Source of the DNA: an uncultured Candidatus Saccharibacteria bacterium
GTDB taxonomy: Bacteria; Patescibacteriota; Minisyncoccia; Sungbacterales; HO2-52-23
Assembly (NCBI GenBank): GCA_964361695.1
Contig: CAYIBQ010000001.1
Coordinates: 1-62,890 of the forward strand
Reading direction: 5' to 3'
DNA: 62,890 nt
The position numbers and the translations under genes are program-made. Under the pieces are notes generated by a model that was given only the letters and a program-made list of their open reading frames with translations, ran no database searches and had not been told where the DNA came from. This document shows, piece after piece, positions 3,977 through 36,507 of this stretch. Within the stretch, counting starts at the first letter, position 1. Every line of letters starts with the position of its first letter.

Positions 3977-3985
3977 TGTGGATAA
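3977..3985 (-). promoter_or_regulatory. DnaA-box-identical 9-mer (TTATCCACA on minus strand), 43 nt upstream of the start at 3934
   Basis: Plus strand reads atgTGTGGATAActc. One of six intergenic copies. Confidence 0.4.
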
Positions 3986-4095
3986 CTCGGATGCGTCGCA
4001 GACGTAAAGGCCGAGGAAAAATCCCGAAGAAACGCATCACCCCGCGCGGATGCGCGGGGTTGTGTGACGGAATCCTCTTCGGGATGGCACTATCA

Positions 4096-4629
4096 TTATC
4101 GCTGAACCTGAATAAGGGGCCCTGTCCCGGTCGGCTCTGATTCACATGAGCCAACCGTGATCGTGCCGGAAGAATTCCTTACTATATAATAGCCCGTGCG
4201 CGCTCCATCCCAAGTTATTCCACTATCATTCCCGCTCGGTGCGGTAGGATTTGCGGCAATATAAGTGGTTATCGCATTCACCCCTCCCGTGTCAGAATCA
4301 AGATCGTACCCATTAGCAAGACCAATGGCCACTTCACAATCTGCTGGAGATGCAGTAGTGCAGGCACCACCGCATGTCCCGATCATATAGGGCGTACCCG
4401 CGGTTAAACCAGTAAAAGTCACCATATAGGCACCGCCATCATCTACTTGTTTTACTTTAATCGCGCTTGCCATCGCCGAAAGATCCGACCAGCGCCGCGC
4501 GTTTCTGGAGTCCTCCAAGCGTTTGCCGGGATTCAGCGCGACGAACGCGACTGCGGCAATGATGCCCACGATTGCGACCGCGATAAGTATTTCAATCAGC
4601 GTAAAGCCCTTTGAATATTTTTTTATCAT
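4096..4629 (-). CDS. Type IV pilin (probable major pilin)
   Basis: Prepilin leader plus class III signal: MIKKYSKG/FTLIEILIAVAIVGIIAAVAFVAL. 177 aa with C-terminal cysteines. Confidence 0.85.
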   Translation of the reverse strand: MIKKYSKGFTLIEILIAVAIVGIIAAVAFVALNPGKRLEDSRNARRWSDLSAMASAIKVKQVDDGGAYMVTFTGLTAGTPYMIGTCGGACTTASPADCEVAIGLANGYDLDSDTGGVNAITTYIAANPTAPSGNDSGITWDGARTGYYIVRNSSGTITVGSCESEPTGTGPLIQVQR

Positions 4630-4725
4630 AATGCTTAAAAATTAGAAATAATAAAAAGTGAAAGAAAAAAGTTGGTTTGGATTTTGTGGACTGAACGACC
4701 TTTTGGTTTAGACGGTAGGTTCTTA

Positions 4726-4758
4726 GCTTTTTAGGAACACTGCCACCTCCTAAAAAGC
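4726..4758 (-). promoter_or_regulatory. 11-bp-stem hairpin GCTTTTTAGGA/TCCTAAAAAGC in the intergenic region upstream of the pilin gene
   Basis: Arms at 4726..4736 and 4748..4758. The preceding 16-mer TTCTTAGCTTTTTAGG (4720..4735) is identical to 12132..12147. Confidence 0.5.
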
Positions 4759-4770
4759 CATGATCTAATT

Positions 4771-6780
4771 TTATTCTTTCTTCGCGTACTCCGAGTGCAC
4801 CCAGACCTTGGCGCCGCCCTCACCTCCCATATCTATTTTATACCATTCTCCGTCCTCCTCCAGCAACACATACTTTTCCCCAGGGTGCACGCGAGTTACA
4901 ATCGCGTGCGTGATATCGGGGCCATTACGGGCGTTGAGCCAGCCGGTATCTGTCTTGAGAATCACGACGCGCGACAACACGTGCGCCTCGGTATTTCCCA
5001 CGCTCTGCTCTGCTCCAGCGTTTTTCACCGTAATGAGCGTTGGCGTCTTGATGCGTATGCGGCCGGATACCGTAAACGTCTTGGAATCTGCAGTCGGTGT
5101 AATATTGAGTATCGTAACCAGGGGCGATAGAACGCGGAAGTCGGCGCCGGTTTTCTGCTCCATGTGCGCCAACATGCGATCAACGATGTCATCGTAGCGA
5201 TACAGGAGCCACGAAATCCGTAACGGAAAGGTAATCTTGGTCACGTCCACGGGTATGGTGATCGCCTCCTGCCAGAGCGCCATACCGCGCTGGCGCGCAC
5301 CTGTAGCCGCTTCCGCCCTGCCGCGCGCCACAGCGTCCAGATAGCCGGATGCCTGATCAATTTCCGTTTCAAAAACCACTCCCGTGACACTCTCGGGGGT
5401 ATTCGCCTCATCAGTAGAGACGATGATCGGAATAGTATCATTGAAGACCTGTACACCGGACTCGCGCAACACGATTGTCGAAGATGTCTCGGCATGCAAG
5501 CGCGCCTCCACCATATCGCGCACCTGTCCGGCGCCAAAAACGCCGCCTATGCCCGCGACCAGCACTCCAAGCAACACTATCTTCTGGCCACGCGTTGCCG
5601 GAATGCGCACGAATTGCACCGGTGCGATGACGATAGATGGCGATACCCCTTCCTGGTCTTCCGCATGGACAGATGACGACGCGGCACCTGCTTCCACGGC
5701 AGTATCGTTCGTTTCTCCGGCATCGCCCAAAAACGCGGGGTCCATAATATATTTTTGGGGATATAAGCCGCGGAGAGCCAGCCCCCCAGCGACAATATAC
5801 TCCAAAAACCCCTGATTGCGCAGCACCACGGATTCTCCTAGCCACACCGACATGCCCACATTTTCCTCATAATACTCCTTGATGTCCTTGAGCTTTGCTG
5901 ATCCGCCAATGAGGATCACCCGATCCACGCGCTCGCCGGTTTTCTCCTGAAAATACTCAATACCCGCTTTAACCCGTGTCGTAATGACCTGCAGGATTTT
6001 TGCGATAACAAAAAAACTCTTCCCTGTCGTGTCCGAGAGTCCCTGTTTGATTTTCACCTGTTCCGCTTCACGCGGCGATATGTTCAGTTCCTTGCTCAAC
6101 GCCAAGGTCATTGCGTCTCCAGCTTCAGCAAGCGTTTGGAGGTATCGGAGTCCGCCTTTGGAAAAAATGGAGATGGTGGTTGCGGCGGCACCAATGTCCA
6201 CAATGCAGACCGGCGACTGCAGCCGGTCGCGAAACAGGCCGCGCGCCGCAGCAATGGTCTCGCTCTCATACGCATCCACGGAAAATCCCGCCTGCCGAAA
6301 AAGCGCTTGCCACTCCGCGAAAACGTGCTTTGAGACAGCGATAAGAATGACGCCCGTGCGCCGCGGAGTTTCATAGAGCGTCGCATACGTATAGAGCGCT
6401 TCGTCTTTTGGGAGAGGAATACTCGATTTCATCTCCTCTTCCACGAGCATATCGCGGTCCTCGCGCTTATGCTCTGCAAGTTCAAAAACACGGGTATACA
6501 TCTGCCCCTCTGGGATGCCAAACGTGATTCGCTTCGGCTCAATGGGGTTGGGTCGGGCGTTTTTTACCGTAGTCGCCAGCGCTTCGGCCAATTTCTGCGC
6601 GTTCTTGATCCGTCCCCGCTCCACCACGCCGCGGGGGAGCAAAACGCGGTTCATGCCGACAATTTTTACTTCTCCGCCTTCGTCGGACAGAGCGACGATC
6701 TCAATCGTGCGGTCAGAAATATCAAGCCCGACAGGGCTTGTTTTCAGCATAGCGGCAATGCGCGACCATTGTTGAGACAT
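4771..6780 (-). CDS. pilM: PilM-like actin-fold pilus assembly protein fused to a TM segment, a long extracytoplasmic region and a C-terminal SH3b-like domain
   Basis: The N-terminal ~350 aa are PilM/FtsA-like (VGLDISDRTIEIV, IVDIGAAATTISIF, VILIGGSAKL). A TM segment is KIVLLGVLVAGIGGVFGAG. The C-terminus GWLNARNGPD...GEKYVLLEEDGEWYKI is SH3b-like. Confidence 0.7.
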   Translation of the reverse strand: MSQQWSRIAAMLKTSPVGLDISDRTIEIVALSDEGGEVKIVGMNRVLLPRGVVERGRIKNAQKLAEALATTVKNARPNPIEPKRITFGIPEGQMYTRVFELAEHKREDRDMLVEEEMKSSIPLPKDEALYTYATLYETPRRTGVILIAVSKHVFAEWQALFRQAGFSVDAYESETIAAARGLFRDRLQSPVCIVDIGAAATTISIFSKGGLRYLQTLAEAGDAMTLALSKELNISPREAEQVKIKQGLSDTTGKSFFVIAKILQVITTRVKAGIEYFQEKTGERVDRVILIGGSAKLKDIKEYYEENVGMSVWLGESVVLRNQGFLEYIVAGGLALRGLYPQKYIMDPAFLGDAGETNDTAVEAGAASSSVHAEDQEGVSPSIVIAPVQFVRIPATRGQKIVLLGVLVAGIGGVFGAGQVRDMVEARLHAETSSTIVLRESGVQVFNDTIPIIVSTDEANTPESVTGVVFETEIDQASGYLDAVARGRAEAATGARQRGMALWQEAITIPVDVTKITFPLRISWLLYRYDDIVDRMLAHMEQKTGADFRVLSPLVTILNITPTADSKTFTVSGRIRIKTPTLITVKNAGAEQSVGNTEAHVLSRVVILKTDTGWLNARNGPDITHAIVTRVHPGEKYVLLEEDGEWYKIDMGGEGGAKVWVHSEYAKKE

Positions 6781-6844
6781 TAGCGCAAAAAGTTAAACGC
6801 GTTTTTACTATTGTACCATAACGAGCATGGAGACATTGCGGGAG

Positions 6845-6853
6845 TTATCCACA
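6845..6853 (+). promoter_or_regulatory. DnaA-box-identical 9-mer TTATCCACA, 65 nt upstream of the pilM-like start (orientation inverted relative to the other copies)
   Basis: Plus strand reads gagTTATCCACAtat, in the 79-nt gap between 6780 and 6860. Confidence 0.35.
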
Positions 6854-6859
6854 TATCTA

Positions 6860-7348
6860 TCAAGGTATCTCTTCCCACCTCCCTATGGTTATGGCGTTTG
6901 TCTCGTCACTGGTCCCGGTAATGGTTAGCTCCGCGCATACTTTTTTGGAGTAGCCGCTCGTGGAAGGACATGAGGCAACGGTGCAGCCGGTTGCGGTTAT
7001 CCCGATGGACGTTCCGGCGACAAAATTGGCGCATGTCCCTCCGCTTGACGTAACGGCTTGCTGTATCGCAACACTGCACGATCCGCCGCCCGCAACCGGC
7101 GGCGTAATAGAGCCGCTAAGCAACGGGGCGATTCGCAGGCGCCGTAGCGCTTCTTCCATGCACCCATCGGCAATGGCAAACGCCCGCGCTCCCTGCTGGG
7201 ACGTGTAACCGGACTCCAGTTCTCCGAGGCCGAGCAGGGACGAATTGTACGCCATGATCAAAGCCGCCGCACCAATGACGACGATCGCAAGAAGAGCGGC
7301 AAAGCCCGAGCGAGGTTGCGGGCGGCAGGTTTTAGGAGGTAGGGCCAT
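6860..7348 (-). CDS. Minor pilin / PilX-like protein
   Basis: Short basic leader followed by the hydrophobic helix GFAALLAIVVIGAAALIMAY. Lies inside the minor-pilin block. Confidence 0.5.
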   Translation of the reverse strand: MALPPKTCRPQPRSGFAALLAIVVIGAAALIMAYNSSLLGLGELESGYTSQQGARAFAIADGCMEEALRRLRIAPLLSGSITPPVAGGGSCSVAIQQAVTSSGGTCANFVAGTSIGITATGCTVASCPSTSGYSKKVCAELTITGTSDETNAITIGRWEEIP

Positions 7349-7349
7349 G

Positions 7350-7856
7350 CTACTGCCGCACGCTTACGGCGGTCGTAAAATCCTTTGAGTAGGTAAACGC
7401 GGAGCTTCCCGAGGGATTGTCGTAGGCAATGGTGAGGTTGATCTTGATATTCTCGCGAGAACCGGTTCCGGTGAGGTTGGTAAACGCCAAGGCCGTTACC
7501 GTCACGTCATCGCTGGTGATGGTCATAACAACCGGCGCACCATCCGTATCTTCCGTAATACGCAGAGTATTGCCGGCATCGCGATCAATTGCGGTCGGGT
7601 GTTTTGCCGGATTTGCCGTGCTGAAATCAAGCGTCAAGACAGTCGGCGTTACGCTGACGATTCCATTTGCGGCGCGGATGCGCTGGCTGATAACTTCCAG
7701 GGCGGTTCTGCCGTTTGCGTGTACCTCCTGCGCTACATACGTCTTGGTACGGGAATTGCTGACCGAGAGGATGAAATAGGTAAAACTCAAGATCGCACCT
7801 GAAATAATAGCGAGGTATATGACAAGCTCTAGAAGTGTAAATCCTGGATTTCTCAT
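7350..7856 (-). CDS. Minor pilin with prepilin-type N-terminal cleavage/methylation motif
   Basis: MRNPG/FTLLELVIYLAIISG. I start it at the internal ATG 7856..7854, which forms an ATGA overlap with the stop of 7853..8482. The track ORF extends to 7919. Confidence 0.75.
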   Translation of the reverse strand: MRNPGFTLLELVIYLAIISGAILSFTYFILSVSNSRTKTYVAQEVHANGRTALEVISQRIRAANGIVSVTPTVLTLDFSTANPAKHPTAIDRDAGNTLRITEDTDGAPVVMTITSDDVTVTALAFTNLTGTGSRENIKINLTIAYDNPSGSSAFTYSKDFTTAVSVRQ

Positions 7857-8482: not shown

Positions 8483-8485
8483 GGG

Positions 8486-12115: not shown

Positions 12116-12137
12116 ACGACGAGATTACCGCTTCTTA

Positions 12138-12191
12138 GCTTTTTAGGTTATAAGCTGGAAATATATCATCCATCTCTACCACCTAAAAAGC
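12138..12191 (-). promoter_or_regulatory. Inverted repeat GCTTTTTAGGT ... ACCTAAAAAGC (11-bp arms, 32-nt loop) upstream of 8486..12115
   Basis: Arms at 12138..12148 and 12181..12191. Shares the exact 16-mer TTCTTAGCTTTTTAGG with 4720..4735. Confidence 0.45.
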
Positions 12192-12217
12192 CAAAAATTA
12201 CAACCTACAATCTCATC

Positions 12218-14005: not shown

Positions 14006-14014
14006 TGTGGATAA
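14006..14014 (-). promoter_or_regulatory. DnaA-box-identical 9-mer (TTATCCACA on minus strand), 55 nt upstream of the start at 13951
   Basis: Plus strand reads cctTGTGGATAAcga. On the minus strand a TGgTATACT extended -10-like box lies downstream of it. Confidence 0.4.
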
Positions 14015-14045
14015 CGAAGGCGTAAAAAAATTTGTTACCTTACCG

Positions 14046-14336
14046 TCATGACATTCTCTCTTCGCTATCCAGAAACCCTTTTATGTAGCGGAGATAATCG
14101 TAATACTGATGTATTTCGTTTTTGATGTCATCTACCATCCGCTTTATATCCACTCTATCGTATTTATGCACGACAAGATTCCGTAAGCCAACGGACGGCG
14201 CGATCTTGAGGGCAAAATCTATGGGCAGTACCTTATGTTCGCCCAGCGTAATAAAAGTACTTTGATAATCATTGGGAACATGCGCCCGTGATTCAAGGAT
14301 GATGTGCGTGTTGAAGAAATGCATTGAGCGATGCAA
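14046..14336 (-). CDS. hepT: HepT-like (DUF86) toxin of an MNT/HepT pair
   Basis: RNLVVHKY matches the Rx4HxY DUF86 motif. 96 aa (short). Overlaps the 3' end of the upstream nucleotidyltransferase gene. Confidence 0.7.
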   Translation of the reverse strand: MHRSMHFFNTHIILESRAHVPNDYQSTFITLGEHKVLPIDFALKIAPSVGLRNLVVHKYDRVDIKRMVDDIKNEIHQYYDYLRYIKGFLDSEERMS

Positions 14337-14715
14337 CGCGCAATGACAAGAGCTTCTGCGCCTCCATATATCGTTTTATGGCATAAATTCTGAATAGGGC
14401 ATAGACGGACGGCTCCGCCTCATAGAGCAGAATGCCTGTTACCGCGACCTGTTTTAAGAGCAAGGGCGGCGCATCATGGATATCGGTAAGCTCAATGTGC
14501 GAGAAATGCGCGACTGCGGACAAATCAAATGCATAGTGAGCTATTTCGTGCGGACTCAAGGCGTGTTTAGATACAAATGCAAAATCCGCATCGCTTTGGG
14601 CGTGTGTTCTGCCGGTTGCCTGCGATCCAAAAAGCACGAAAAGCGTAATGCCATATTTTCTCGCGAGAGAGGCAATTTCCGATTTCTTTTCTACGGTGAG
14701 CAGGGATTCTTTCAT
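14293..14715 (-). CDS. mntA: MNT-type nucleotidyltransferase antitoxin
   Basis: LFGSQATGRTHAQSDADFAF matches the GSx(n)SDxD minimal nucleotidyltransferase motif. Paired with the DUF86 gene. Confidence 0.75.
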   Translation of the reverse strand: MKESLLTVEKKSEIASLARKYGITLFVLFGSQATGRTHAQSDADFAFVSKHALSPHEIAHYAFDLSAVAHFSHIELTDIHDAPPLLLKQVAVTGILLYEAEPSVYALFRIYAIKRYMEAQKLLSLRVASLNAFLQHAHHP

Positions 14716-14786: not shown

Positions 14787-14795
14787 TGTGGATAA
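14787..14795 (-). promoter_or_regulatory. DnaA-box-identical 9-mer (TTATCCACA on minus strand), 72 nt upstream of the MNT start
   Basis: Plus strand reads aggTGTGGATAActt. On the minus strand a TGgTATCAT box ends 6 nt before the ATG, so the mRNA may be leaderless. Confidence 0.4.
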
Positions 14796-14801: not shown

Positions 14802-17800
14802 TTATGGAGTAATCGGCGTAGTCCGCAAGGTGTCAATCTCCGGCTGGGTGAGCGCGCGGTTGAATACGCGGACTTCGTCAAGGATGCCGTCAAAATACAA
14901 GTCATTGGGAGGCGATCCGTTGAATGCGCCGCATCGGCCAAGCGATGCGCTTAATTGACTGCCGGGAGGGGTGGCAACAGTCAGCGGCGTACCGCTCACC
15001 GTGCCGTTGATGTAGATTGTGTTTGTCCAGTTTGGTCCTGAAATTGATCGGACAAATGCAACATGATACCACGTGCCGGTAGACAATGCGCCGGCGCCCG
15101 TATCGCTCGCGCTCACAAAACTATTGCCCCATCCAACGCTAATCGCGCTATTATTCGGATCCCGTCCAACGCTTACCCCCACTTGCCCTAAAGTTCCTGG
15201 TGATGCATTGCACTGCCCAATGAGATAATTCCCACCGGTATTGTCAAGCACGTCGTTGAATCGCACCCATCCCATGAATGTCATTTCTCCGGAGAGATTG
15301 AGTTTTGCGGGAAGGCCAAGCGTGACATAGTCCCCGGATCCGTCAAACGAAAGAGCGGACGCGCCGTATTGGGCAATGGCGGTCCATAACGCATTAGTGA
15401 TAGTGCCATTTGTGCCGTTGCCGGATGAATCGTTGACCGTAGCACCGGCATTTTCATTGAAACCGTATTGAGCCACCACTCCCGCAAGCGCTCCGTTATC
15501 CACAGTTACGACCACGGGTGCTGAAGTATTGCTGTTTCCCTGCACATCGCGGACCGTGGCAGTGAGCGAGTGCGACCCTTGAGTTGCCGAAAGGGTATTC
15601 CAATTAACAGTGAAGGGTGTTGCGGTATCAATACCAATGGACTGTCCATCCATAAAGAATTCAACTTCCGCAATCTGATAGTTATCCGTGGCAGTGGCGT
15701 TGATCGCGACTGGAGCGCCAAGAACGGAAGGAACCGAAGGAGGCGAAGGCGGCGGAGCCGTGATGGAAACAGTGGGCACTTGAATGTCTGACACGTACGT
15801 TACTTGATAATTTCCGGAAAGCGCGGGAAAAATTTTATACTGCCTTCCTTTGATGGTTTCGGTGCGGAGCGTTATCGGCGATCCATCGCGCGTGATCGCG
15901 GCCACGGCAACACCGTTAAATGTGCTTGGCATCATTGCCTGCAAACCATTTGCTTTGCTGTCTGCGGTGACCGTAAAACTTGCCTGTGTCCCGTTCCAAC
16001 CGAGGTTCGTAATAGTGGAGCTGTTTCTCCCGTCGGTCCAATCAAGGGCTTGCGCCGAGGAAATAATGGGAACGCCGCGCGCAACTGCCGAGGCAATGAC
16101 CGCATCGGATACAGCAGAGGCGGTATTGTCCGTATGCGCATTGACGACAAAAAATCCGTAGTATCCCTCAATACCGATGGCGCGGTCAAGGAGCGTATCA
16201 ACCGTTGCGGGGTAACTCTGGGTTCCGCTCTCGTCTTGCATTTGGGTCGGCGCTTGATATGCGTCAATAACGCTTCCGGCCGCGGTGGCAAACCGCATGG
16301 GCATGCCGGAACCGTTGAAAAAACCAACTTGCTGGAGAATCCATTGACCAACGATAGGGAACCAATGATAGTAATCGGTATCAAACCGAAGGCCGTTGGC
16401 AGCGCCCACGCTCGCGTGCGTGCTGTAATCGCTCCACGGGCCGCAATGCGTACGCACGGTCCGCGGCGCGGGAACGCCGGGGTTGTATGCCGCATTAAAC
16501 GAGGAGAGTTGCGGGGGAAAAGCGGTTGCCAAGTTTGTCGCGCCTACGGGCTGGAAATTAGCGCATACCGAACCATTCGTATCCGTATACGTATGCAAGG
16601 CAATTTCAAATCCGTTTGTTACATGAGCGCTTGCTTGCGCGGGCGTAATAGCGTTTGTGTATATATATGAGGTGCTCCGAATACAGTCCCAGTTGCTAAC
16701 CACGCATCCGGGAATACTTTGATTTTGATAGCTGATAAGCCGTCCTTGGGTGCCGTTGTTATTGCCACCAACAGCATCATGATCATCACCGGTCATCACC
16801 ACCGCCGCTTTTTCATCGCGCGGAAAATACCAAAAACGCGGGAATGGACGCGTGTCGCTTTGCATATGCAAAATAAGGTTGGCAAGCAACCGCATTTGTT
16901 CGTCTGCCTGGGGAATAGGAATTTTACTCACGTCAATCCAGTCGGTCTGGGGATCTTGAGGAGTATTGATGGAATTGCCGTAAAAAAGATCTATCGGACG
17001 CACCGGGGCAGCATCCGGATCCTCTGACCGATCCTGACCCGCCCATGCGGGATTTCCCTGTCTCGTCTGCGCGACCGAGCGTGCAAGATCATAGGTAAAT
17101 GCCGCGGCTTGTCCGCCGGTTCCCGCGTTTACCGTCCGGAGCGTTACTGCCGGGTTTGCCGTCGCGTTGATTGCATCGGAATAAATAGTCGCCACCGCCG
17201 TTGCGCCGTTTAAGGTATAGTTGTCCGCGATACCGTGGTATTGGATGGTTTGATTCACCAACCCTTGTCCCGGGCTTGCCGCGGTGTTTATTAAAAGATA
17301 TGCGTTTTGGCGAGTTCCCGCCGGAGCGTTAAGCCCGAGAAGCCCCGCAAACTGGGAATCCGGGCGCATGGCAATCAATTCTCCTCCTGCGGTCACCCAG
17401 TCCGTAAACATGGTCACTTGCAGGACGCTCAACGTCATCTCGCCCAGCACCACGACGTCATAGCTTGCGAGCACTGCCGCGGTAACCGTGCCAATATCCG
17501 CAGTGGCAAATGCGTTCAATCCTTCGGTTAAAAGAATTTCCTGAAGATAGCCGGTGAAAGGATTTGCCGCGATGTTGGTAACAATGAGAATGGGAATAGT
17601 CCCCGCAGGAGGAGGAATGACGGGCGGCGTGCCGAGAACAATGACGCTCGCTTCTTCCGACTCCAAAGCGCCGACCGTAATCCTGCCGCTTGCCGAGCAC
17701 ATCAGATAGTAGCCCGTGGCGATTTGATTCCACGACCCGACTCCGCCAGGACTCACCGGCAGGGAAGCAAAATACGCGGTAGGGCCTGTGGCGAGTGCGG

Positions 17801-18200
17801 AGAGATCAACGCCGTTTGTAGCGCCGATGACGGCATCAAAAGGAGGAGACGCCGCGGCGCACGTCGGCGTCGTGGCGCCGGTGCAGGTGCCGATCATGTA
17901 GGGCACATCCGTGGTAAGCGAAGAAAACGGAGGGATGCTTGCCACATCCTGTCCGCCCTGATCAATGCGGTAGAGGGCGACTGCTTTGTTAATCGCCTGG
18001 ATGTCTTCCCAGCGTACCGCGTCACGGGACTGCTGCAGCCGCTTTTGGGGATTGAGGACAGCTACGGTAATCGTCGCGATGACTGCCACGATGGAAATGG
18101 CGATGAGTATTTCTATGAGCGTAAAGCCGGGGGCGCGCCGTGTGAGTTTTTCTGTTGGCGTCATACGCATAAAAGACCGCGCTGGCGGGCGACAAAACAC
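14802..18200 (-). CDS. Giant pilin-fusion protein: prepilin N-terminus plus pilin domain plus ~700-aa unassigned module plus Ig-like plus LamG
   Basis: RAPG/FTLIEILIAISIVAVIATITVAVL. The pilin-like first ~190 aa are paralogous to 4096..4629 (same PYMIGTC...GYYL pattern). An Ig-like segment is VAINATATDNYQIAEVEFFMDG. The C-terminal LamG ends LDEVRVFNRALTQPEI. The true start is probably an internal Met (MTPTEKL). Confidence 0.75.
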   Translation of the reverse strand: MFCRPPARSFMRMTPTEKLTRRAPGFTLIEILIAISIVAVIATITVAVLNPQKRLQQSRDAVRWEDIQAINKAVALYRIDQGGQDVASIPPFSSLTTDVPYMIGTCTGATTPTCAAASPPFDAVIGATNGVDLSALATGPTAYFASLPVSPGGVGSWNQIATGYYLMCSASGRITVGALESEEASVIVLGTPPVIPPPAGTIPILIVTNIAANPFTGYLQEILLTEGLNAFATADIGTVTAAVLASYDVVVLGEMTLSVLQVTMFTDWVTAGGELIAMRPDSQFAGLLGLNAPAGTRQNAYLLINTAASPGQGLVNQTIQYHGIADNYTLNGATAVATIYSDAINATANPAVTLRTVNAGTGGQAAAFTYDLARSVAQTRQGNPAWAGQDRSEDPDAAPVRPIDLFYGNSINTPQDPQTDWIDVSKIPIPQADEQMRLLANLILHMQSDTRPFPRFWYFPRDEKAAVVMTGDDHDAVGGNNNGTQGRLISYQNQSIPGCVVSNWDCIRSTSYIYTNAITPAQASAHVTNGFEIALHTYTDTNGSVCANFQPVGATNLATAFPPQLSSFNAAYNPGVPAPRTVRTHCGPWSDYSTHASVGAANGLRFDTDYYHWFPIVGQWILQQVGFFNGSGMPMRFATAAGSVIDAYQAPTQMQDESGTQSYPATVDTLLDRAIGIEGYYGFFVVNAHTDNTASAVSDAVIASAVARGVPIISSAQALDWTDGRNSSTITNLGWNGTQASFTVTADSKANGLQAMMPSTFNGVAVAAITRDGSPITLRTETIKGRQYKIFPALSGNYQVTYVSDIQVPTVSITAPPPSPPSVPSVLGAPVAINATATDNYQIAEVEFFMDGQSIGIDTATPFTVNWNTLSATQGSHSLTATVRDVQGNSNTSAPVVVTVDNGALAGVVAQYGFNENAGATVNDSSGNGTNGTITNALWTAIAQYGASALSFDGSGDYVTLGLPAKLNLSGEMTFMGWVRFNDVLDNTGGNYLIGQCNASPGTLGQVGVSVGRDPNNSAISVGWGNSFVSASDTGAGALSTGTWYHVAFVRSISGPNWTNTIYINGTVSGTPLTVATPPGSQLSASLGRCGAFNGSPPNDLYFDGILDEVRVFNRALTQPEIDTLRTTPITP

Positions 18201-28034: not shown

Positions 28035-31000
28035 TTGCTCATTCTCGTGGTGATGTTTTTCGGTTTTCCTCAGTTTTGGCTCGCGACGCCGCCCGAGGCC
28101 CAAGCCGCCGCAGAAGATGCATGGTATGTGGCCGCGAGCGGCACCTATAAATACCGCAAAAAACTGACGCTGGAAGCCGATCTCGTCAGCGGCAGTACGG
28201 ACTTGACCAATTTTCCCGTGCTTGTTGCGTTCACGGACACGGATCTGAAGACCACCGGCAACGGGGGGGATGTTACGGATGCAAACGGCTACGACATCGT
28301 GTTTACGACCGCCGTTGCCACACCAGCGCTCCTTGACCATGAAATAGAAAAGTTTACGGCGTCCACCGGTGAAATCGCGATGTGGGTGGAAATCCCGACG
28401 CTCGGCGGCGCCACGGACACGGATATTTACATGTATTACGGCAACAGCTCCGTTTCCTCGTCCCAGGAAAACATCACGGGCGTGTGGGATTCAAGTTATG
28501 TAGGCGTATGGCATATGAAGGAGACCTCCGGAGCACACCAGGATTCTACGAGCAATAACAATGATTCCACCACGATTGCCGTCACTACGCAGGGCTCCGC
28601 CACGGGGCAAGTGGATGGCGCCGACGATTTTGAATTAAGCAGCGGCAATGAGGTAGACATTGGCGACAGCAATAGTTTGGACATCACCTCGGCCTGGACA
28701 CTTTCGGCATGGATAAACCAGGAGTCACAAAGCACGTATGACACCCTACTCGTGAAATCAACAGGAGCCGATGTTTATAATTACTTTGTGGCCATCAACA
28801 ACGATGAGATCGACGCAGGATTCACCGTAAACACGGCATACCGGGAATGTCAGAGTACGGCGGCAAATCTTGCCGTTGGGACGTGGTACCACGTTACCGC
28901 GACATTCGACAATTCCGGGAACGCCATGGCAATCTACAAAAACGGCGCATCACAATCAGTTGCGAGTCTTTCAGGGAGCGGGTGCACGACGACAAGCGAT
29001 CCTGCAACCAATACAGGGGTTTTGGTTATGGGCGAAGACGCGGCTGATACCCAAAGCTTTGACGGCCTCATTGATGAGGTGCGGATTTCTTCCAGCGTCC
29101 GCTCTGCGGATTGGATCAAAACCGAGTACGACAACATGGCAAATCAAGGCACCGGCGCCGGAAAATTCATAAAGACATTGGGCTCGGAGCAGGCATGGGT
29201 CAATTCAACCGGTTCCTCGGATACTTCGTGGGTAAAAGGCGGAGCTACCGGAAGCAATATTGCGCTTACGGTGAATAACTCCACCAATTCCGCGACCACG
29301 ATCCAATGGATCAAAATCACCCGGCCGTCTTCAAATTATACCATGACAGCCGGGTCAGCGACCGGCTGGAGCGCCGCCGTTACCTCTGCGGATGTTACGT
29401 TTACCGGTAGCACCATTGCCGCAAACGCCTCAACCGCGTTTACCGTAACCGCGACCATCGGGAGTTCCGATGAAGCCCAGACCGCATGGACCATTGACGT
29501 AGATGACGCGACTGACGGCGCGTCATCTACGAGCACGGTCGCTTCATCGGCAAACGCGCTTAAGACGGGTATTGACGCAACCGCGCCAACGGTTACGATG
29601 TCCGGCGTTACGGTAAACAGCGACACCCAGATAACCGCAACCGCAAACACCGCAACCGACGCGAGCTCTGGACTGCACTCTTCGGCTCCATACTGGTTTG
29701 ACGAAACCAGCGGCGGCTCGGGCGCTACGGATTCCACGGCTTGGCAGTCAGCGGTTACGTTTGCCGATACCGGCCTCTCGGCAGGCACCCAATACTGCTA
29801 CCGCGTCAAGGCGCGCGATGCCGTGAGCAACGAGTCATCCTACACGAGCACCTCATGCGGCACCACCACCGGATCTGCCTCCACGGAGGGAGGATCATCG
29901 GGAGTGCCGGGGATCGTATCCGGAGGAGGCGTTGCCGTACAGCTTCCTCCCTTAGAGATCTCGGATGTCGTTGTAGATGCCAGCGTTGATGTCGCCATGA
30001 TTACGTTTATCACGAGCCGTCCCGCCTCGTCATATGTGGAATATGGTCTTACGAATACCTATGGATCCAGCACTCCCAAAAACAATGATTCATTTCAAAA
30101 ACATACTCTCACCGTATCCGCATTGCTTCCCCGGACAGCCTATCATTTTCGCGTCACCACAGAGGACTCGCAGGGAAAGGTTGTCGCTTCAAGGGATACC
30201 ACATTCCTTACGCTCAAAGCGCCCAAACCGGGAATGACGCTCCAGCAGGTGAAAGACGAACAGGCCAAGGAAATCGCGGAGGAGGCCGAGAAAAAAGTGG
30301 AAGAAGAAAAGGCAGAAGAAACGAAGAAACAACAAAGGGAATCTCCGCCTCCCAAGATTACGGGTGTTTCCATCATCGCCGTACGTCCCACCTCGGCAAA
30401 AATCGCTTGGAAAACAGATATTCCCGCCACCTCGCAGGTCTTTTTCGGCGAGCGGCCAAAAGATCTCAACCAGATCACGATTGAATATGCAACACTCGTT
30501 ACCGAGCACAGCGTCACTATTTCCGACCTCACATCCAAGACCGCGTATTACTTCACGGCGGTGTCGCGAAGCGAAAGCGGTGTAGAGGCGACTTCGCCCG
30601 AATCGTCGTTTACCACCGAGTCGCTGGAGATTCAAACCGTCGTTGACATCGCAAAACCAGTACCCCTGCCGCCGGGGTCGCCAGGCACACAGAGTCCGAA
30701 GACCGCGGCTGGCGAGACCGTAACCGTCATACCCATTCTTTCCACGCCGGGTGATGTAGCACCTCCTGAAGTTGTGCTCCTCTCATTTGCGAAAAACCCG
30801 ACGCAGGAGACGTCCCCGCTCATTCGTGGACGCGCGCGAGACGCGCGGGGAGTCATCGCTAGCATCGCGTACTCTACCGATAACGGGGCTACCTGGCATC
30901 CGATAGACGACACCCAGGGCATTGGTTCATCGGCGGCTCAATTTTCTGCGCGCATACCGCACTTGCAAGAGGGCGAGTACAGTATTGTCTTCCGAGCCCG

Positions 31001-32192
31001 TGACAACTCCGGCAATACGGGAAAGTCGGATGCGCGGTCGCTGGTTATAGATATCAAGCCGCCCAGGACGGGTGCGAACGCCTTTACGCTCGGCACGCAA
31101 GTTATTACCCCGTCGGCACACGGCGTTCTTACGACGCTCGCGGGCATTACCCAACGCATCATGCTCTCCGCCGTAGGAGGCGCTACCGCCGTGCAGGTGA
31201 CGACGGACGGCGCTTCGTTCCCGCTCACGTATTCCAAGACCGACAATCTTTGGTTCGGCGATATCACGTTGAAACGCCCCGGCACATACCATCTCTCGGT
31301 AACGGCGGTAGACGGCGCCGGCAGAATGTCACAACGTGAAATTAACACGGTGAAAGTGGCTTCCCCCGGTACGATAACGGACAGTGAAAACGGAACGCCG
31401 ATCGCTGGTGTGCGTGTTTCGCTCTATAACTTTTCTCCTGAATTGAACGATTTTGTCTTATGGCCGGGAGATATCTTTAATCAGGCAAACCCCGCGATCA
31501 CCGGAGAAGACGGTGCATATCGCTTCCTTGTGCCAGTCGGGCGCTATTATATCAAAGCGGAAAAAGAGGGCTACAAACCGTTGTACACCCAAATACGTGA
31601 TTTCCCCAACCACTCCGCGTTGAGCTTTACCATACCGATGCGCCGGAGAGCTACGGTATCACTCCCGCTGGGACCGCAGGGACACATCACGCTACCGGGA
31701 CTCCCTGATTTTCTGGGACACACACGCGTATCCGCATCACCGGACACTGCGTCCGACAGTAGCGTCGGAGCATCCGCGTCTTTGATAGACGCTTTGGCTC
31801 CTCCTTTTTCTCTTTCCGACTCCACAAACCAGCCGGTTGACATCCGATATTTGCGTGGCAAAAAAACCGTATTGACCGCATGGGCAACGTGGTCGCCCCT
31901 CGCACAAATACAAGTGCCCGTTTTAGACGCTCTGGTGAGGGAGGACTCGGACAACGTCAATGTACTCCTGCTCTCATCACAGGAGTCAAGGGGTGTGGTA
32001 GAGACGTATCTGCGTCGCGGTAACTATGACCTGCGGAGCGTCATAGATCAAAATGGAGATCTCTTGGATCTCTACGGCATCACAACGCTGCCACAGCACT
32101 TTTTCCTGGATCGCAGGGGTATTGTCCGGGGCATGCATACGGGATTTATGCAAAAAGAACAGTTGCAAAAGGCGCTCCGTGATATTCCATAG
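28035..32192 (+). CDS. Giant surface protein: DUF2341 plus LamG plus FN3-like repeats plus K/E-rich linker plus carboxypeptidase-regulatory-like domain plus C-terminal thioredoxin-fold domain lacking the CxxC
   Basis: YRKKLTLEADL...NFPVLVAFTD...YDIVFTT...EIAMWVEIPTL...IYMYYGN (DUF2341). LIDEVRISSSVRSADWIKTEY (LamG). Several FN3-like segments (YCYRVKARDAVSNES, YHFRVTTEDSQG, YYFTAVSRSESG). TlpA-like tail KKTVLTAWATWSPLAQ. The track start is a TTG, so the exact start is uncertain. Confidence 0.8.
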   Translation: MLILVVMFFGFPQFWLATPPEAQAAAEDAWYVAASGTYKYRKKLTLEADLVSGSTDLTNFPVLVAFTDTDLKTTGNGGDVTDANGYDIVFTTAVATPALLDHEIEKFTASTGEIAMWVEIPTLGGATDTDIYMYYGNSSVSSSQENITGVWDSSYVGVWHMKETSGAHQDSTSNNNDSTTIAVTTQGSATGQVDGADDFELSSGNEVDIGDSNSLDITSAWTLSAWINQESQSTYDTLLVKSTGADVYNYFVAINNDEIDAGFTVNTAYRECQSTAANLAVGTWYHVTATFDNSGNAMAIYKNGASQSVASLSGSGCTTTSDPATNTGVLVMGEDAADTQSFDGLIDEVRISSSVRSADWIKTEYDNMANQGTGAGKFIKTLGSEQAWVNSTGSSDTSWVKGGATGSNIALTVNNSTNSATTIQWIKITRPSSNYTMTAGSATGWSAAVTSADVTFTGSTIAANASTAFTVTATIGSSDEAQTAWTIDVDDATDGASSTSTVASSANALKTGIDATAPTVTMSGVTVNSDTQITATANTATDASSGLHSSAPYWFDETSGGSGATDSTAWQSAVTFADTGLSAGTQYCYRVKARDAVSNESSYTSTSCGTTTGSASTEGGSSGVPGIVSGGGVAVQLPPLEISDVVVDASVDVAMITFITSRPASSYVEYGLTNTYGSSTPKNNDSFQKHTLTVSALLPRTAYHFRVTTEDSQGKVVASRDTTFLTLKAPKPGMTLQQVKDEQAKEIAEEAEKKVEEEKAEETKKQQRESPPPKITGVSIIAVRPTSAKIAWKTDIPATSQVFFGERPKDLNQITIEYATLVTEHSVTISDLTSKTAYYFTAVSRSESGVEATSPESSFTTESLEIQTVVDIAKPVPLPPGSPGTQSPKTAAGETVTVIPILSTPGDVAPPEVVLLSFAKNPTQETSPLIRGRARDARGVIASIAYSTDNGATWHPIDDTQGIGSSAAQFSARIPHLQEGEYSIVFRARDNSGNTGKSDARSLVIDIKPPRTGANAFTLGTQVITPSAHGVLTTLAGITQRIMLSAVGGATAVQVTTDGASFPLTYSKTDNLWFGDITLKRPGTYHLSVTAVDGAGRMSQREINTVKVASPGTITDSENGTPIAGVRVSLYNFSPELNDFVLWPGDIFNQANPAITGEDGAYRFLVPVGRYYIKAEKEGYKPLYTQIRDFPNHSALSFTIPMRRRATVSLPLGPQGHITLPGLPDFLGHTRVSASPDTASDSSVGASASLIDALAPPFSLSDSTNQPVDIRYLRGKKTVLTAWATWSPLAQIQVPVLDALVREDSDNVNVLLLSSQESRGVVETYLRRGNYDLRSVIDQNGDLLDLYGITTLPQHFFLDRRGIVRGMHTGFMQKEQLQKALRDIP

Positions 32193-32282
32193 GCCTTTGA
32201 GGTTGTAGCTTCTTTTGTTTTCAGGTATCATAGAGCCATATATACCGGAACCTGATAAGCCAAAAACACACAACGTGACGTT

Positions 32283-33965
32283 ATGTGGGAACAGTTTTGG
32301 ATCAGAAACGCGCACTACATCCTTGAAACATTTTTCTCGTTTTCCCTGCTGATGGCCGGGTGGATTTATATTGATGGATGGATACTAGAGCGCAAAGCAA
32401 AGACGCTGATTCGCGCCGCGGGGTTTCTTACTATGGCCGTGTGGGCAATGCTTGACGCCGCACCGCTTCCGATCATCCGGGACGCGCTCATTGACGTTAT
32501 TGGTCTTGCCGGTTTTGTCCTGTTACTGATAAGTTTGCTCATTGACCCGGTACCGGTGCGGCCTGGTGCGCGGCCGCCGCGTATCTTTGGCCGGCAATGG
32601 ATAACTGCCCTATGGGCAGTACTCGGCATTGGCTTGGTGTTGTTGGTCCTTCCTTATATACCCATCGTGCGTTTGTTCCCATCTTTCTCCGCTCTCACGC
32701 CTTGGGCAGTACCTGCGCGAATACTCCTGGAGCCACGCATGTGGATGCTTGTTGTGGCAGGATTTATCACTTTCTTTTTCCATCTTCACTATGAGCAAGG
32801 TATCCAGCGTGAGTGGAAATCTATTTATTATTCCCTTCTTTTTATTGCCATTTCGCTCGTCTTTGCGGTGGCAACTTTGTGGCAGAGCTCTTCACATGTA
32901 CTCCTCGCACGCATGTTGGCGCCCTATCATCTTATCTGGATCATTGAGCACGCCGTCAAACTAATCGGCGCACTGTTTTTGGGATCGTGGGCGTGGGGAT
33001 TTATCAGATTCCGCGTATTTCCCCAGATTTTTTCCAGCTTTGTGGCGCTTGCCTTTATGACATTCATGCTTTCGACGATCACCTATACTGGCTTCATGCT
33101 GACGCGCGTTAATGCGAGTACCGCTGATGATCTTCAGACCAACGTACGGACGCTGGAGTTTGCGTTGGGAAAAGTCAAAGAATCCGCCGTCCTCGCGGCG
33201 CGCATTACTGCGGCCAATCCGCAGATTCGCGAGGCGATACGCCTGGGGGATCGTAACGCTTTGTTCCAGAATCTTAACACCTTGATGTTTGAAAACAAGA
33301 CTGATTTCATGATGGCGGTGAACACGGGCGGCGAGGTGGTTATTCGCGCGGAAGATCGCGATCGTTTTGGCGACTCACTCGCGGACGATCCGGTAGTATG
33401 GCGGGCGCTGGACGGCAAGGCCGTCGTCACCACCACCGCACGCAAGGACATCGCAGCGCCTACGGTTTCTATCCGCGCCGCAAGCCCTATTGTGGATGCT
33501 TCCAAATCGGGCGAGCCGGAAGTCATCGGAGCGATAGTCACCGGCTATCTGCTGGATCTTGCCTTTGTAGACGGCATCAAAGACCTGACGAATCTTGACA
33601 TTACGATCTATGCGAGCGATACAAGCGCCGCAACTACATTTGTCATATCCGACACTGGCATGCGCCTCCTGGGAGCGCGCGAGACAAACCGCTCGATCAC
33701 CGACACAGTCTTGAAAAAAGGCGGCTCCTATCTCGGCTCATCATCAGTACTCAATCAGCCCTTCCTGGCCGCTTATATCCCGCTCAAAGACGTGGAGAGC
33801 ACGACGATTGGTATGCTTTTCACCGGACGCTCCCAAGCCACAATCCTGGCGCTTGCCGCTGACACCATGCGCCTTTCTTTCTCCATATCCATACTTCTCA
33901 TGCTCCTGTCCGTTGTCCCACTCTGGCTGCTTTCCAAATTCATCACGTACAATCAGAACGTCTGA
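32283..33965 (+). CDS. Polytopic membrane protein with extracytoplasmic Cache/PDC-like sensor domain and no recognisable output domain
   Basis: About 8 N-terminal TM helices, then a soluble region (NALFQNLNTLMFENKTDFMMAVNTGGEVVIRAEDRDRFGDSL...SIRAASPIVD...IVTGYLLD), then a final TM helix. Confidence 0.6.
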   Translation: MWEQFWIRNAHYILETFFSFSLLMAGWIYIDGWILERKAKTLIRAAGFLTMAVWAMLDAAPLPIIRDALIDVIGLAGFVLLLISLLIDPVPVRPGARPPRIFGRQWITALWAVLGIGLVLLVLPYIPIVRLFPSFSALTPWAVPARILLEPRMWMLVVAGFITFFFHLHYEQGIQREWKSIYYSLLFIAISLVFAVATLWQSSSHVLLARMLAPYHLIWIIEHAVKLIGALFLGSWAWGFIRFRVFPQIFSSFVALAFMTFMLSTITYTGFMLTRVNASTADDLQTNVRTLEFALGKVKESAVLAARITAANPQIREAIRLGDRNALFQNLNTLMFENKTDFMMAVNTGGEVVIRAEDRDRFGDSLADDPVVWRALDGKAVVTTTARKDIAAPTVSIRAASPIVDASKSGEPEVIGAIVTGYLLDLAFVDGIKDLTNLDITIYASDTSAATTFVISDTGMRLLGARETNRSITDTVLKKGGSYLGSSSVLNQPFLAAYIPLKDVESTTIGMLFTGRSQATILALAADTMRLSFSISILLMLLSVVPLWLLSKFITYNQNV

Positions 33966-34032
33966 CCGATCCTCCACAGCGCGGGCACGATACAATCCCC
34001 CGGCGTACGCCGGGGGATTGTATTATTCGGTA

Positions 34033-34887
34033 TTACCAGATCATTTCGTTGGGAGATGCGCCGTCTTCAGCCGCTTCCTTTTTCTTCTCCGGCTTTGCCA
34101 CGGCTTTGGGCTCGGACGGTACCTGCTCCTGCTTCGGCTTCGGCTTTTCCTCGGGCTTCTTATCCTGCTTCTGTTCCGGCTCTTTTGGACGGGGAACTTC
34201 AGCGACAACTGGTTTTTTTATCTCCTCCGCCGACCCGTCTTCATCCTCCGACTCTTCGTCGGCCGCCTCGCGTACGGTCGGGTGCACCGACCGCGATGTT
34301 TTTGCTTTGACGGACTGTTTAGCCTTCTTCGCCTTGACGCCATCCACCGGCGCTTCTTTTTCTTCTCCGGCATCCTCGGCATTATCCGCTTCTTTTTTCG
34401 ATTCCTGGGCTTTGGCGCTTCCCTCGGCCGCCGCCTGTTGCTCCGTGTTCTCCAGAACGCGCGCGGCGCCTCCGAGGGATTCAGCCGCCGTCTTGGGAAT
34501 CTCCCGTGAATGGGTATAGCCCGCCAGGACCTCCTTTACTTTGGCGATGACCTCGTCCGGGCGATACGCGGACTTTACAAGATATGCCACAGCCCCCAGT
34601 TCCAGGCCGCGTTCAATATCATCTTGCGTGCCACCGAGATTCGTGAGAATTACTACCGGTGTTTTTGCAGTCGTCGGATCAGATTTCAAACGCTCCAATA
34701 CTTGCAGGCCGTTGAGCTTGGGCATCATAATGTCCAGCAACACAAGATCCGGGCGAAACGAGCGCACCTTTACGAGTCCGTCCTCGCCGTCCACCGCAAC
34801 CAACGCCTCATACCCGTCGTTCACGAGCTTGCGCTGGTACATGCGTACCATCAACGGATCATCTTCTATGAGAAGCACTTTTGCCAT
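34033..34887 (-). CDS. Response regulator receiver domain with a ~150-aa K/E/P/A-rich low-complexity C-terminal tail
   Basis: MAKVLLIEDD...DLVLLDIMMPKLNG...ILTNLG...K, followed by AKAQESKKEADNAEDAGEEKE...KAKKAKQSVKAKT...PEEKPKPKQEQ...KPEKKKE. I start it at the internal ATG 34887. The track ORF extends to 34926. Confidence 0.8.
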   Translation of the reverse strand: MAKVLLIEDDPLMVRMYQRKLVNDGYEALVAVDGEDGLVKVRSFRPDLVLLDIMMPKLNGLQVLERLKSDPTTAKTPVVILTNLGGTQDDIERGLELGAVAYLVKSAYRPDEVIAKVKEVLAGYTHSREIPKTAAESLGGAARVLENTEQQAAAEGSAKAQESKKEADNAEDAGEEKEAPVDGVKAKKAKQSVKAKTSRSVHPTVREAADEESEDEDGSAEEIKKPVVAEVPRPKEPEQKQDKKPEEKPKPKQEQVPSEPKAVAKPEKKKEAAEDGASPNEMIW

Positions 34888-34957
34888 AGTTGCATACAAA
34901 ATACTATAGTGCGCCATCAAGCACAAGCGGCTTGTTGTACACAGGGAAGCCCGTGGT

Positions 34958-35968
34958 CTAATCTATGGAGCCGCCCGATGGTCTACTTCTTCCGGCGTCG
35001 GCTTCCGCCTCCAAAAATCGCTCGTGAAAGCGCCGTAGCGCCGCGGCGCGGGGGCTTCCCGCGCGCGGCAGACGGAAAAAAAACGTGGCGCCCTTGCCCA
35101 GTCCCGGCGATTCCATCCACACCTCACCCCCCAACTTTTCTATCAATTGATGCACCAAATTCAGGCCGAGACCGGTACCCCGATGCACATCCAGAAGACC
35201 CATATCTATCTGCGGAAAGCGTTTAAAAAGCTTTGGTTGGTCTTCGCCACGCACGCCCATACCCATATCCTGCACCGAGACCTTTACGGTGTCTTGCTCA
35301 TCCCAGGCCGTGAGCGTGATATGCCCTCCGGCTGGCGTGAACTTTAGCGCATTGCTAAGGAAATTGTCTATAATCTGGAAAATACGGTTTCTATCGGAAA
35401 AAACGAGTGAGGATGTCTCCGGGTAGTGAAGGGAAAAAATAAGACCCTTTCGCCTGAGAACCGGCTCAAATTCTTTTTGTATGGTTTGAAGGATTTCCTT
35501 GATATCTATCTCCTCAAGCACGAACCGCATACGCCCGCTCTCAATCCGAGAGATGTCAAGCATGTCATTGACCAATCTGGTAAGGCGATCCGCTCCCATC
35601 AGTGCGTCCGCAAGATATTCGCTCGTGCGCACAGGCAACACCCCGGTCTCTCCCTTTAGCACCATGTCTATATTGCCTCTGATAACGTCCAGGGGCGTGC
35701 GTAACTCATGATTGGTGATCCTGATGAAGTCATCTTTGGAGCGAGAAGCATCGCGCGACGCCTGAATTTCTTCGCGCAGGTCCTTTACCCTCGCCGCTAC
35801 GTCCAGCTCCACGCGGGTCTTTGCGTCCTGAAGGTCGGCCGCGCACGCGATAAGGCGTCTTTTCAGTCCGGCAACCGTGTCTTTTCCATGTCCGATGCGG
35901 ACTGACGATTCTTGGCGGGTATTTCGCGTCTGCGTTCCCGCGCTTCCTTTCTTTCGGGCTATTTTCAT
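34958..35968 (-). CDS. Cytoplasmic histidine kinase (coiled coil plus HisKA plus HATPase_c)
   Basis: H-box ITNHELRTPL, and GMGVRGED plus GTGLGLNLV. Confidence 0.85.
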   Translation of the reverse strand: MKIARKKGSAGTQTRNTRQESSVRIGHGKDTVAGLKRRLIACAADLQDAKTRVELDVAARVKDLREEIQASRDASRSKDDFIRITNHELRTPLDVIRGNIDMVLKGETGVLPVRTSEYLADALMGADRLTRLVNDMLDISRIESGRMRFVLEEIDIKEILQTIQKEFEPVLRRKGLIFSLHYPETSSLVFSDRNRIFQIIDNFLSNALKFTPAGGHITLTAWDEQDTVKVSVQDMGMGVRGEDQPKLFKRFPQIDMGLLDVHRGTGLGLNLVHQLIEKLGGEVWMESPGLGKGATFFFRLPRAGSPRAAALRRFHERFLEAEADAGRSRPSGGSID

Positions 35969-35985
35969 GAAGCAGGTGTAAACCG

Positions 35986-36435
35986 CTATCTCCCTGACGT
36001 ACCTGCGCTTGGGGTGAGCGTTATAGGCTTGTCGCCGGCATACGATGCCACCACCTCACACACCTTTGCCGCAACCTCTCTGGGCGTATACTGGACCTTC
36101 ACCATATACAAAACGGCTCCTTCCTCAAGTGCTTTCTCCACATCTTCAGTGTCCGCCAGATTAGTGAGCATGATGATGGGCGTACGCTTAAACGCCTCGT
36201 GTCCTTTCATGAAGCGCAAAACATCAAGACCGTTTTTCTTGGGCATCATAATGTCCAGCAATACCGCAGCTGGCATGACGCCTTCTTCTCTCATTTTTTC
36301 CAGTTTTTCTATCGCCTGCTCCCCGTCAAACGCAAGCTCCACAGAAAAACCCGCGGCCTTGAGCGCCTCCATGTGGAGGCCTGCAATGAGCGCGTCATCA
36401 TCCGCCAGAAGAATTTTCTTCCCGTTATCAGGCAT
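35986..36435 (-). CDS. Single-domain response regulator
   Basis: ILLADDD...AVLLDIMMPKKNG...MLTNL...K. Confidence 0.85.
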   Translation of the reverse strand: MPDNGKKILLADDDALIAGLHMEALKAAGFSVELAFDGEQAIEKLEKMREEGVMPAAVLLDIMMPKKNGLDVLRFMKGHEAFKRTPIIMLTNLADTEDVEKALEEGAVLYMVKVQYTPREVAAKVCEVVASYAGDKPITLTPSAGTSGR

Positions 36436-36461
36436 ACCAATACCGATCCTTTATAGTGTCG

Positions 36462-36490
36462 ATCATAGAAGTATTCCCCCCTCACGTCAA
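36462..36490 (-). promoter_or_regulatory. Sigma70-like promoter candidate (TTGACG-17 nt-TATGAT on minus strand) for 35986..36435
   Basis: Minus strand reads TTATCCACActattccgTTGACGtgaggggggaatacttcTATGAT. The -10 box lies 27 nt upstream of the ATG. Confidence 0.45.
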
Positions 36491-36498
36491 CGGAATAG

Positions 36499-36507
36499 TG
36501 TGGATAA
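36499..36507 (-). promoter_or_regulatory. DnaA-box-identical 9-mer (TTATCCACA on minus strand), 9 nt upstream of the -35 hexamer
   Basis: Plus strand reads tagTGTGGATAActg. Confidence 0.4.

Follow-up and report, generated by a model that had tools for sequence, protein, structure and literature searches.

What does a DnaA-box 9-mer do when it recurs, one copy at a time, in front of genes spread along a contig? The question is raised by a stretch of 62,890 nucleotides from a Sungbacteria-lineage genome of the Patescibacteria (the window, by which we mean the whole stretch of DNA that was analysed), in which TTATCCACA, or TGTGGATAA when read on the other strand, occurs seven times. An earlier reading of the same letters (the original prediction) took the motif for a global promoter element, recognised either by DnaA acting as a transcription factor or by another regulator with the same specificity. 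We consider it reasonably likely that the 9-mer, in its full form AGTTATCCACA, is a conserved cis-regulatory site just upstream of the -35 hexamer, which DnaA would bind and through which the expression of the linked genes would be controlled.

All seven exact copies were recovered at the positions first reported for them (Table 1), whereas dinucleotide-preserving shuffles contain 0.34 copies on average and 2 at the most. Measuring distances from the end of the box to the minus-strand start codon, we find six of the seven copies to be intergenic (the sole genic copy, at 15496, lies inside the 14802-18200 gene) and to stand 42, 64, 54, 71, 58 and 63 nt from the start codon (for 3977, 6845, 14006, 14787, 27843 and 36499, respectively), in agreement with the distances that had been claimed. 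The shared orientation reported for five of these six also holds, the five reading TTATCCACA in the direction of the gene, and the promoters at 27843 and 36499 are as originally described.

The excess extends to the whole genome, of which the window is contig 1 (879,721 bases in 114 contigs, 92% complete). It contains 42 exact copies against the ~6 expected under an order-3 Markov model, and the box is its most over-represented 9-mer except for the words of one tandem heptad repeat. Thirty-five of the 42 lie in intergenic DNA, which makes up 14% of the genome, and the seven genic copies are about the number expected by chance, these intergenic counts being approximate because genes were called with a custom, crude codon-usage caller (86% coding). 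Both the over-representation and its concentration between genes, as envisaged by the original prediction, are therefore seen genome-wide. The flanks of the 42 copies are mutually unrelated, bar one contig-end duplicate that brings the number of distinct exact boxes to 41. The two copies concerned, at C2:44 and C65:3448, share one contig-end sequence (C2:1-110 and C65:3380-3460), and the contigs probably overlap or meet at a repeat boundary.

Departures from the exact 9-mer are few. Only TGGGGATAA, TGTGGAAAA and TGTGGATAG, among the 27 possible one-base variants, show an intergenic or promoter association; of the three, TTTTCCACA fits TTWTNCACA, and TTATCCCCA and CTATCCACA fall just outside it. 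Sites matching TTWTNCACA number 109 in the genome (~124 per Mb). On its 5' side, TTATCCACA is preceded by A (21/34) and then G (23/34), which yields the extended motif AGTTATCCACA; the strong E. coli oriC boxes R1 and R4 carry a 5' G too, which we treat as a lead and not as a test. The weaker variants that had been counted into the family did not hold up, those at 46934 and 49009 differing from the box at 2-3 positions and, since they lie within or just before the -10, in geometry too, and TGCGGATAA having no promoter association genome-wide.

We then examined the position of the box relative to promoters, using sites with at most one mismatch as anchors and with promoters and start sites taken as consensus predictions only. 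Counts of TANNNT peak at offsets of 28-30 nt downstream of TGTGGATAA, where each offset has 11-12 sites compared with a background of ~3, and 16 of the 42 exact copies have the pattern at this distance. In the aligned sites, a TTGnnn -35 follows 5-6 nt after the box, with a 16-18-nt spacer leading to a -10 that is often of the extended TGn type; overall, the box occupies a slot that ends 5-8 nt before the -35 and spans about -49 to -41. Genome-wide, TGTGGATAA towards the gene (orientation R) is the commoner arrangement, and orientation F (TTATCCACA towards the gene) occupies the same region more loosely, mostly 27-33 nt from the -10. The window is thus typical in position and atypical in orientation, five of its six intergenic copies being of the F type that is the genome-wide minority. 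The fixed spacing to promoters that had been proposed is accordingly confirmed across the genome for both the -10 and the -35. As also anticipated, the motif is over-represented in upstream regions: the top four specific 7-mers between -60 and -18 of 435 predicted promoters are pieces of the box, which is present in ~23 of them (~5%). The copies are dispersed, in the window and in the genome alike, and do not form an oriC-type cluster. The proposal of a global promoter element with DnaA specificity therefore stands as regards a dispersed promoter element and its DnaA-box specificity, and has to be qualified as regards generality; because only ~5% of promoters carry the box, and because the ~40 annotated linked genes include no ribosomal or translation gene, the box looks like the mark of a regulon and not like a general promoter feature.

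Conservation was assessed within the genus by locating all 34 box sites of a related genome (G002), their downstream genes and the orthologues of these genes in the window's genome. At 15 of ~17 comparable promoters the box is kept, exactly at 13 and as a used variant at 2, without a change of orientation or place and with an ungapped identity of 99% for the box and of 38-45% for the flanks (30 nt upstream and 45 nt downstream), and these alignments show the box to be under purifying selection at orthologous promoters. Two sites of the window are among those conserved. The 3977 box is kept in orientation and place upstream of an 81%-identical orthologue in G002, and the 58%-identical orthologue of the 6845-linked gene in G015 has a box 30 nt ahead of TATTAT, with a spacer of unrelated sequence; in the search made with this 669-aa PilM-like protein, matches outside G015 were canonical pilM paralogues that are not first in operons.

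Over longer distances, the 9-mer is present in 10-46 copies in every one of the 41 genomes searched in the family and order (that of the window being one of them), where the reversed control has 0-12, and the composite pattern TGTGGATAA-N28-30-TANNNT occurs 293 times in these 41 genomes against 5 times for the reversed control. In an even sample of the phylum, comprising 301 Patescibacteria genomes, at least one composite site is present in 190 (96 for the control), and about 22 genomes from several families have at least five, a number that the control never attains. The fixed-slot box is widespread but patchy across the Patescibacteria. In a complete relative (G010), the 36 copies are dispersed without clear origin or terminus bias, and one perfect box lies in the dnaA-dnaN spacer.

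The genome of the window encodes one DnaA (461 aa, C5:18998-20383), and no second DnaA C-terminal domain (Bac_DnaA_C) was found in it. With the DnaA of Candidatus Sungbacteria bacterium RIFCSPLOWO2_01_FULL_54_21 it shares 94% identity, and the other close relatives are Sungbacteria/Parcubacteria groundwater metagenome-assembled genomes. A comparison of domain IV of this DnaA with that of E. coli (1J1V) shows conservation of the R399-equivalent arginine, of RPRQ, of the proline of YPSIGD and of GGRDHTTV(I/L)H, and since these contact residues match those of E. coli, the protein should bind TTATCCACA. Around dnaA itself, 70 sites within one mismatch were counted over 64 kb from 32 Sungbacteria loci, about five-fold more than the ~14 expected. 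These sites are concentrated no more than ~200 nt from one end or the other of dnaA, and their commonest variants include the same three that are tolerated at promoters. Judged by these variants, the specificity of the promoter motif would be loosely tied to DnaA; the flank preference beside dnaA is weakly AG, and does not serve to connect these sites with those at promoters or to tell them apart. Upstream of the dnaA gene of the window's genome, three degenerate boxes, 2 nt apart, precede a -10. No oriC- or datA-type cluster of exact boxes was found in this genome, where only two loose clusters of at least three sites occur (at most one mismatch, 400 bp), none of them in the window. The likely origin regions of this genome (C5:18814-18997, the dnaA-dnaN spacer) and of G010 (C1:485690-485850) are short and AT-rich and hold at most one perfect box, and no classical multi-box oriC was found in either.

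Among the genes linked to the box are a major-pilin-like one, that for PilC (T2SSF) and the PilM-like/SH3 gene, which is followed by a pilin-like gene. The box also stands before three two-component or FIST operons and before genes for LamG/DUF2341 surface proteins, for a mechanosensitive-channel-like protein and for a LysM/M23 peptidase. A LexA-methylase fusion and an Xer-like recombinase are also linked, together with IS200-like Y1 transposases and many small membrane proteins, among which two paralogue pairs keep the box in both members. The LexA-methylase gene (C10:327-1925, minus strand, 532 aa) fuses a complete LexA (LexA_DNA_bind and Peptidase_S24) to an N6/N4 DNA methyltransferase domain; its promoter has the variant box TGGGGATAA 30 nt before TATAAT, and in G002 the promoter of the orthologue carries the box without a mismatch.

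From the position of the sites and the conserved contacts of the protein, we infer that DnaA would occupy these boxes and that its occupancy would change transcription. The sole DnaA of the organism, the most likely ligand, would bind the box as a monomer through domain IV and, when placed at -49 to -41, touch RNA polymerase at sigma region 4 or at the alpha C-terminal domain (alpha-CTD). The output of the promoters linked to pili, the surface, the cell wall, two-component systems, LexA and the recombinase would then follow the amount or nucleotide state of free DnaA, which is to say replication status, and the identity of the linked genes suggests that pilus, surface and signalling functions may be controlled by the replication machinery. 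DnaA would probably act here as a promoter-proximal regulator that either activates or modulates transcription. Where the box lies, and its phasing to within +/-1 bp, point tentatively to activation.

Several points weigh against this assignment. The intergenic counts depend on the crude gene caller and the geometry on consensus promoters. Box promoters do not have weaker -35 hexamers than the rest (p = 0.13) and so lack a feature commonly seen where a promoter depends on an activator, and both orientations of the box are used and conserved, which implies that the contact geometry is not simple. Membership also turns over between genera, as illustrated by the pilC box, which G002 keeps, G003 has in degenerate form and other genera lack. 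(Upstream of pilC in several of these genera, namely in the family-level relatives L037, L039, L040 and L044, a conserved TTAACAT...CTCAAG pair stands before the same leaderless TGgTATAAT promoter, and may be the site of another regulator in the same slot.) Finally, perfect 11-mers are found at promoters, whereas the boxes next to dnaA are mostly degenerate with a weak AG flank, and a separate factor with a preference for the perfect 11-mer could give rise to such a distribution as well. On this alternative, which we regard as rather unlikely though not far-fetched, another DNA-binding protein of the same specificity, lineage-specific or so far unrecognised, would be the regulator, with DnaA irrelevant or merely competing for the sites. 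It would account for the difference in quality between the perfect AGTTATCCACA sites at promoters and those near dnaA, and for a pattern whose strength is patchy over the phylum although DnaA is universal; many of the targets are, moreover, two-component systems with uncharacterised regulators. It has to contend, however, with a box that fits the universal DnaA-box consensus at 9/9 positions, with the recurrence of the same three variants at promoters and next to dnaA, and with a DnaA that keeps all the base-contact residues of 1J1V and should bind these sites in any case. No second protein with a DnaA-C domain was found, nor did a candidate for the other regulator emerge.

If DnaA is accepted as the ligand, the boxes might still serve replication control in the main, as a dispersed reservoir that titrates DnaA (initiator titration, or a datA-like role), with their placement at promoters secondary. 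About 42 boxes of the high-affinity type over 0.88 Mb give a very small cell a high box density. The 4.6-Mb E. coli genome has 307 TTWTNCACA boxes, to be set beside the 109 counted here, and titration by boxes of this kind is documented (PMC5835720, which also provides background on the box). Titration needs no fixed position, however, whereas the R boxes hold their distance to the -10 to within +/-1 bp and are separated from the -35 by 5-6 nt; orientation is kept promoter by promoter, and the sites are single and not in datA-like clusters. We therefore judge titration improbable as their main function, and favour DnaA as a regulator because a monomer-sized site abuts the -35, is phased to within +/-1 bp and keeps its orientation at each promoter. 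It is still less probable that the box is an intrinsic element read by RNA polymerase itself, through a UP-like alpha contact or an extra sigma contact and with no separate factor: the slot at -49 to -41 does overlap the proximal UP-element region, and the spacing is tight in one orientation, but only ~5% of promoters have the box, none of the ~40 linked annotated genes is ribosomal or translational, and both orientations are used and conserved. A UP element proper was rejected, since a specific, G/C-containing 11-mer found in either orientation at ~5% of promoters is not the A/T-rich tract bound by the alpha-CTD. Least credible of all is that the enrichment has no function and stems from a mobile repeat or from compositional bias. 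General caution about repeat-derived words, and the one contig-end sequence shared by C2:44 and C65:3448, speak for it; the otherwise unrelated flanks, the reversed-pattern controls near zero and the 99% identity of the box across species (~40% for the flanks) speak against it. A mobile or repetitive extragenic palindromic (REP)-like repeat was rejected as a candidate for lack of extended flank similarity among the 42 copies.

How would DnaA regulation of this kind compare with known systems? DnaA-regulated promoters include those of dnaA, nrdAB and mioC in E. coli, dnaA, sda and other stable sites in B. subtilis, gcrA, ftsZ and podJ in Caulobacter, and gidAB-parAB in P. aeruginosa. These share with the Sungbacteria sites the same 9-mer, boxes in or next to promoters beyond that of dnaA, and the canonical contacts of domain IV. 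The known regulons are small, however, with boxes that are often paired or clustered and lack a common geometry, whereas the Sungbacteria have single perfect boxes in one slot, 5-8 nt upstream of the -35, at ~5% of promoters and order-wide; and where the known targets are replication or nucleotide genes, those found here are pili, surface proteins and two-component systems. Class II-type activator sites also abut the -35, as do CRP at -41.5 and the Spo0A 0A boxes at sigma-A promoters, and the phasing to within +/-1 bp resembles what a protein touching sigma region 4 or the alpha-CTD needs. Unlike these, the Sungbacteria site lacks symmetry and has the size expected for a monomer; it serves in both orientations and does not accompany a weakened -35. 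Like datA and oriC, the Sungbacteria promoters present high-affinity consensus DnaA boxes, here outside the origin, but one per promoter, phased and of conserved orientation in place of a cluster. The UP element, the alpha-CTD site at -40 to -60, is likewise upstream of the -35 but differs from this motif, which is not A/T-rich, is sequence-specific and serves a minority of promoters. That DnaA acts as a transcription factor at promoter-proximal boxes is established (PMC13438810, PMC2533591; see also PMC11317965). A full-text search found no paper on a fixed-slot DnaA-box regulon in Patescibacteria, and a paper on the type IV secretion system (T4SS) mentions only that some genes lie near dnaA.

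The Patescibacteria make up a large share of bacterial diversity, and the regulation of their cell cycle and differentiation has been described as virtually or completely unknown (PMC11665869; 2024 perspective). A fixed-position box at pilus, surface and signalling promoters offers a concrete hypothesis, and an in-silico handle with which to predict the regulon in uncultivated lineages. If it is correct, the replication initiator takes over work of transcription factors lost from reduced genomes, and a reusable promoter architecture is defined (box, 5 nt, -35, 17 nt, -10). Going further, we put forward as a tentative idea, one that we hold possible without leaning towards it, that DnaA could be a master transcription factor in Sungbacteria and, patchily, in other Patescibacteria. 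Through one high-affinity box in the slot next to the -35, replication status would bear on ~5% of promoters, among them those of type IV pili, surface and cell-wall proteins, two-component systems, LexA and Xer, and this coupling would be a switch between an attached, replicating state and a motile, searching state in genome-reduced episymbionts.

Table 1. The seven exact copies of the box in the window, with the genes that they adjoin and the predicted promoter elements.
Position	Strand	Feature	Basis	Linked genes (domains from Pfam)	Promoter elements
3977..3985	-	DnaA-type box, orientation F (TTATCCACA towards gene)	exact match	response-regulator/FIST/ABC-substrate-binding operon (3934 down to 2)	30-nt spacer to -10 TACCAT (3946-3941); ATG 3934 comes 6 nt after -10
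6845..6853	+	DnaA-type box, orientation R (TGTGGATAA towards minus-strand gene)	exact match	PilM-like/SH3 gene (6780-4771) and pilin-like gene (4629-4096); PilM_2, SH3_3, N_methyl	29-nt spacer to -10 TACAAT (6815-6810)
14006..14014	-	DnaA-type box, orientation F	exact match	LamG/DUF2341 surface-protein operon (13951 downwards)	32-nt spacer to extended -10 TGgTATACT (TATACT 13973-13968); ATG 13951
14787..14795	-	DnaA-type box at non-canonical distance	exact match	upstream of nucleotidyltransferase/HepT-like toxin-antitoxin pair (14715-14046); 7 nt past stop of 14802-18200 gene	59 nt (not ~30) to -10 TATCAT (14727-14722), which is 6 nt before ATG 14715
15496..15504	+	exact 9-mer within coding sequence		1132-aa pilin-like surface protein gene (14802-18200)	
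27843..27851	-	DnaA-type box in divergent promoter region	exact match	orientation F for hybrid histidine kinase gene (27784-26105), R for 1385-aa surface protein gene (28035-32192)	minus strand: 5-nt gap, -35 TTGTTT (27837-27832), 16 nt, -10 TATAAT (27815-27810); plus strand: 31 nt, then TAGAAT (27883-27888)
36499..36507	-	DnaA-type box, orientation F	exact match	response regulator/histidine kinase operon (36435 downwards), just downstream of rpoD; Response_reg, HisKA/HATPase_c (Sigma70 for 36686-38035)	8-nt gap, -35 TTGACG (36490-36485), 17 nt, -10 TATGAT (36467-36462), ATG 36435

Two of the copies in the window stand apart from the rest. The promoter assignment of the 14787 box is uncertain, and the 15496 copy is probably a chance occurrence, as the number of genic copies genome-wide matches that expected by chance; no good -10 was found after it. 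The nucleotidyltransferase (Polbeta/MNT) and HepT-like ribonuclease genes at 14046-14715, likely a toxin-antitoxin pair, are situated between two pilin-like or surface-protein operons.

The transcript from the promoter of the 3977 box would probably be leaderless, because ATG 3934 follows so closely on the -10. An ATG exactly 6 nt after the -10, which leaves no space for a Shine-Dalgarno sequence, is found in the window at 3934 and 14715 and elsewhere in the genome at C45:317, C103:1327, C106:1625, C6:24777, C7:20918 and C3:262, and with this arrangement at many genes, leaderless transcripts seem to be frequent in the Sungbacteria lineage.

The 44-bp palindrome at 45130..45173, which the original prediction had added to the box family, is real and perfect but does not belong to that family, its half-sites ATATCCACC being two mismatches from the box. 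It consists of 22-nt arms without a loop, directly follows the stop codon of a gene for a protein with a PaaX_M/Cas2-like domain (45174-46046) and neighbours a tRNA-gene-like sequence (about 44988-45075, judged without a tRNA scan); it could be a terminator or an operator.

Finally, units of 7-8 nt of the AAATYCCAA type form inverted arrays at 27855-28025 of the window and at C5:21280-21460 of the same genome, and words of these arrays are the most over-represented 9-mers of the genome. Similar arrays recur in the intergenic spacers of relatives, including the pilB-pilC spacers at the level of the order (L053, L054 and L062).

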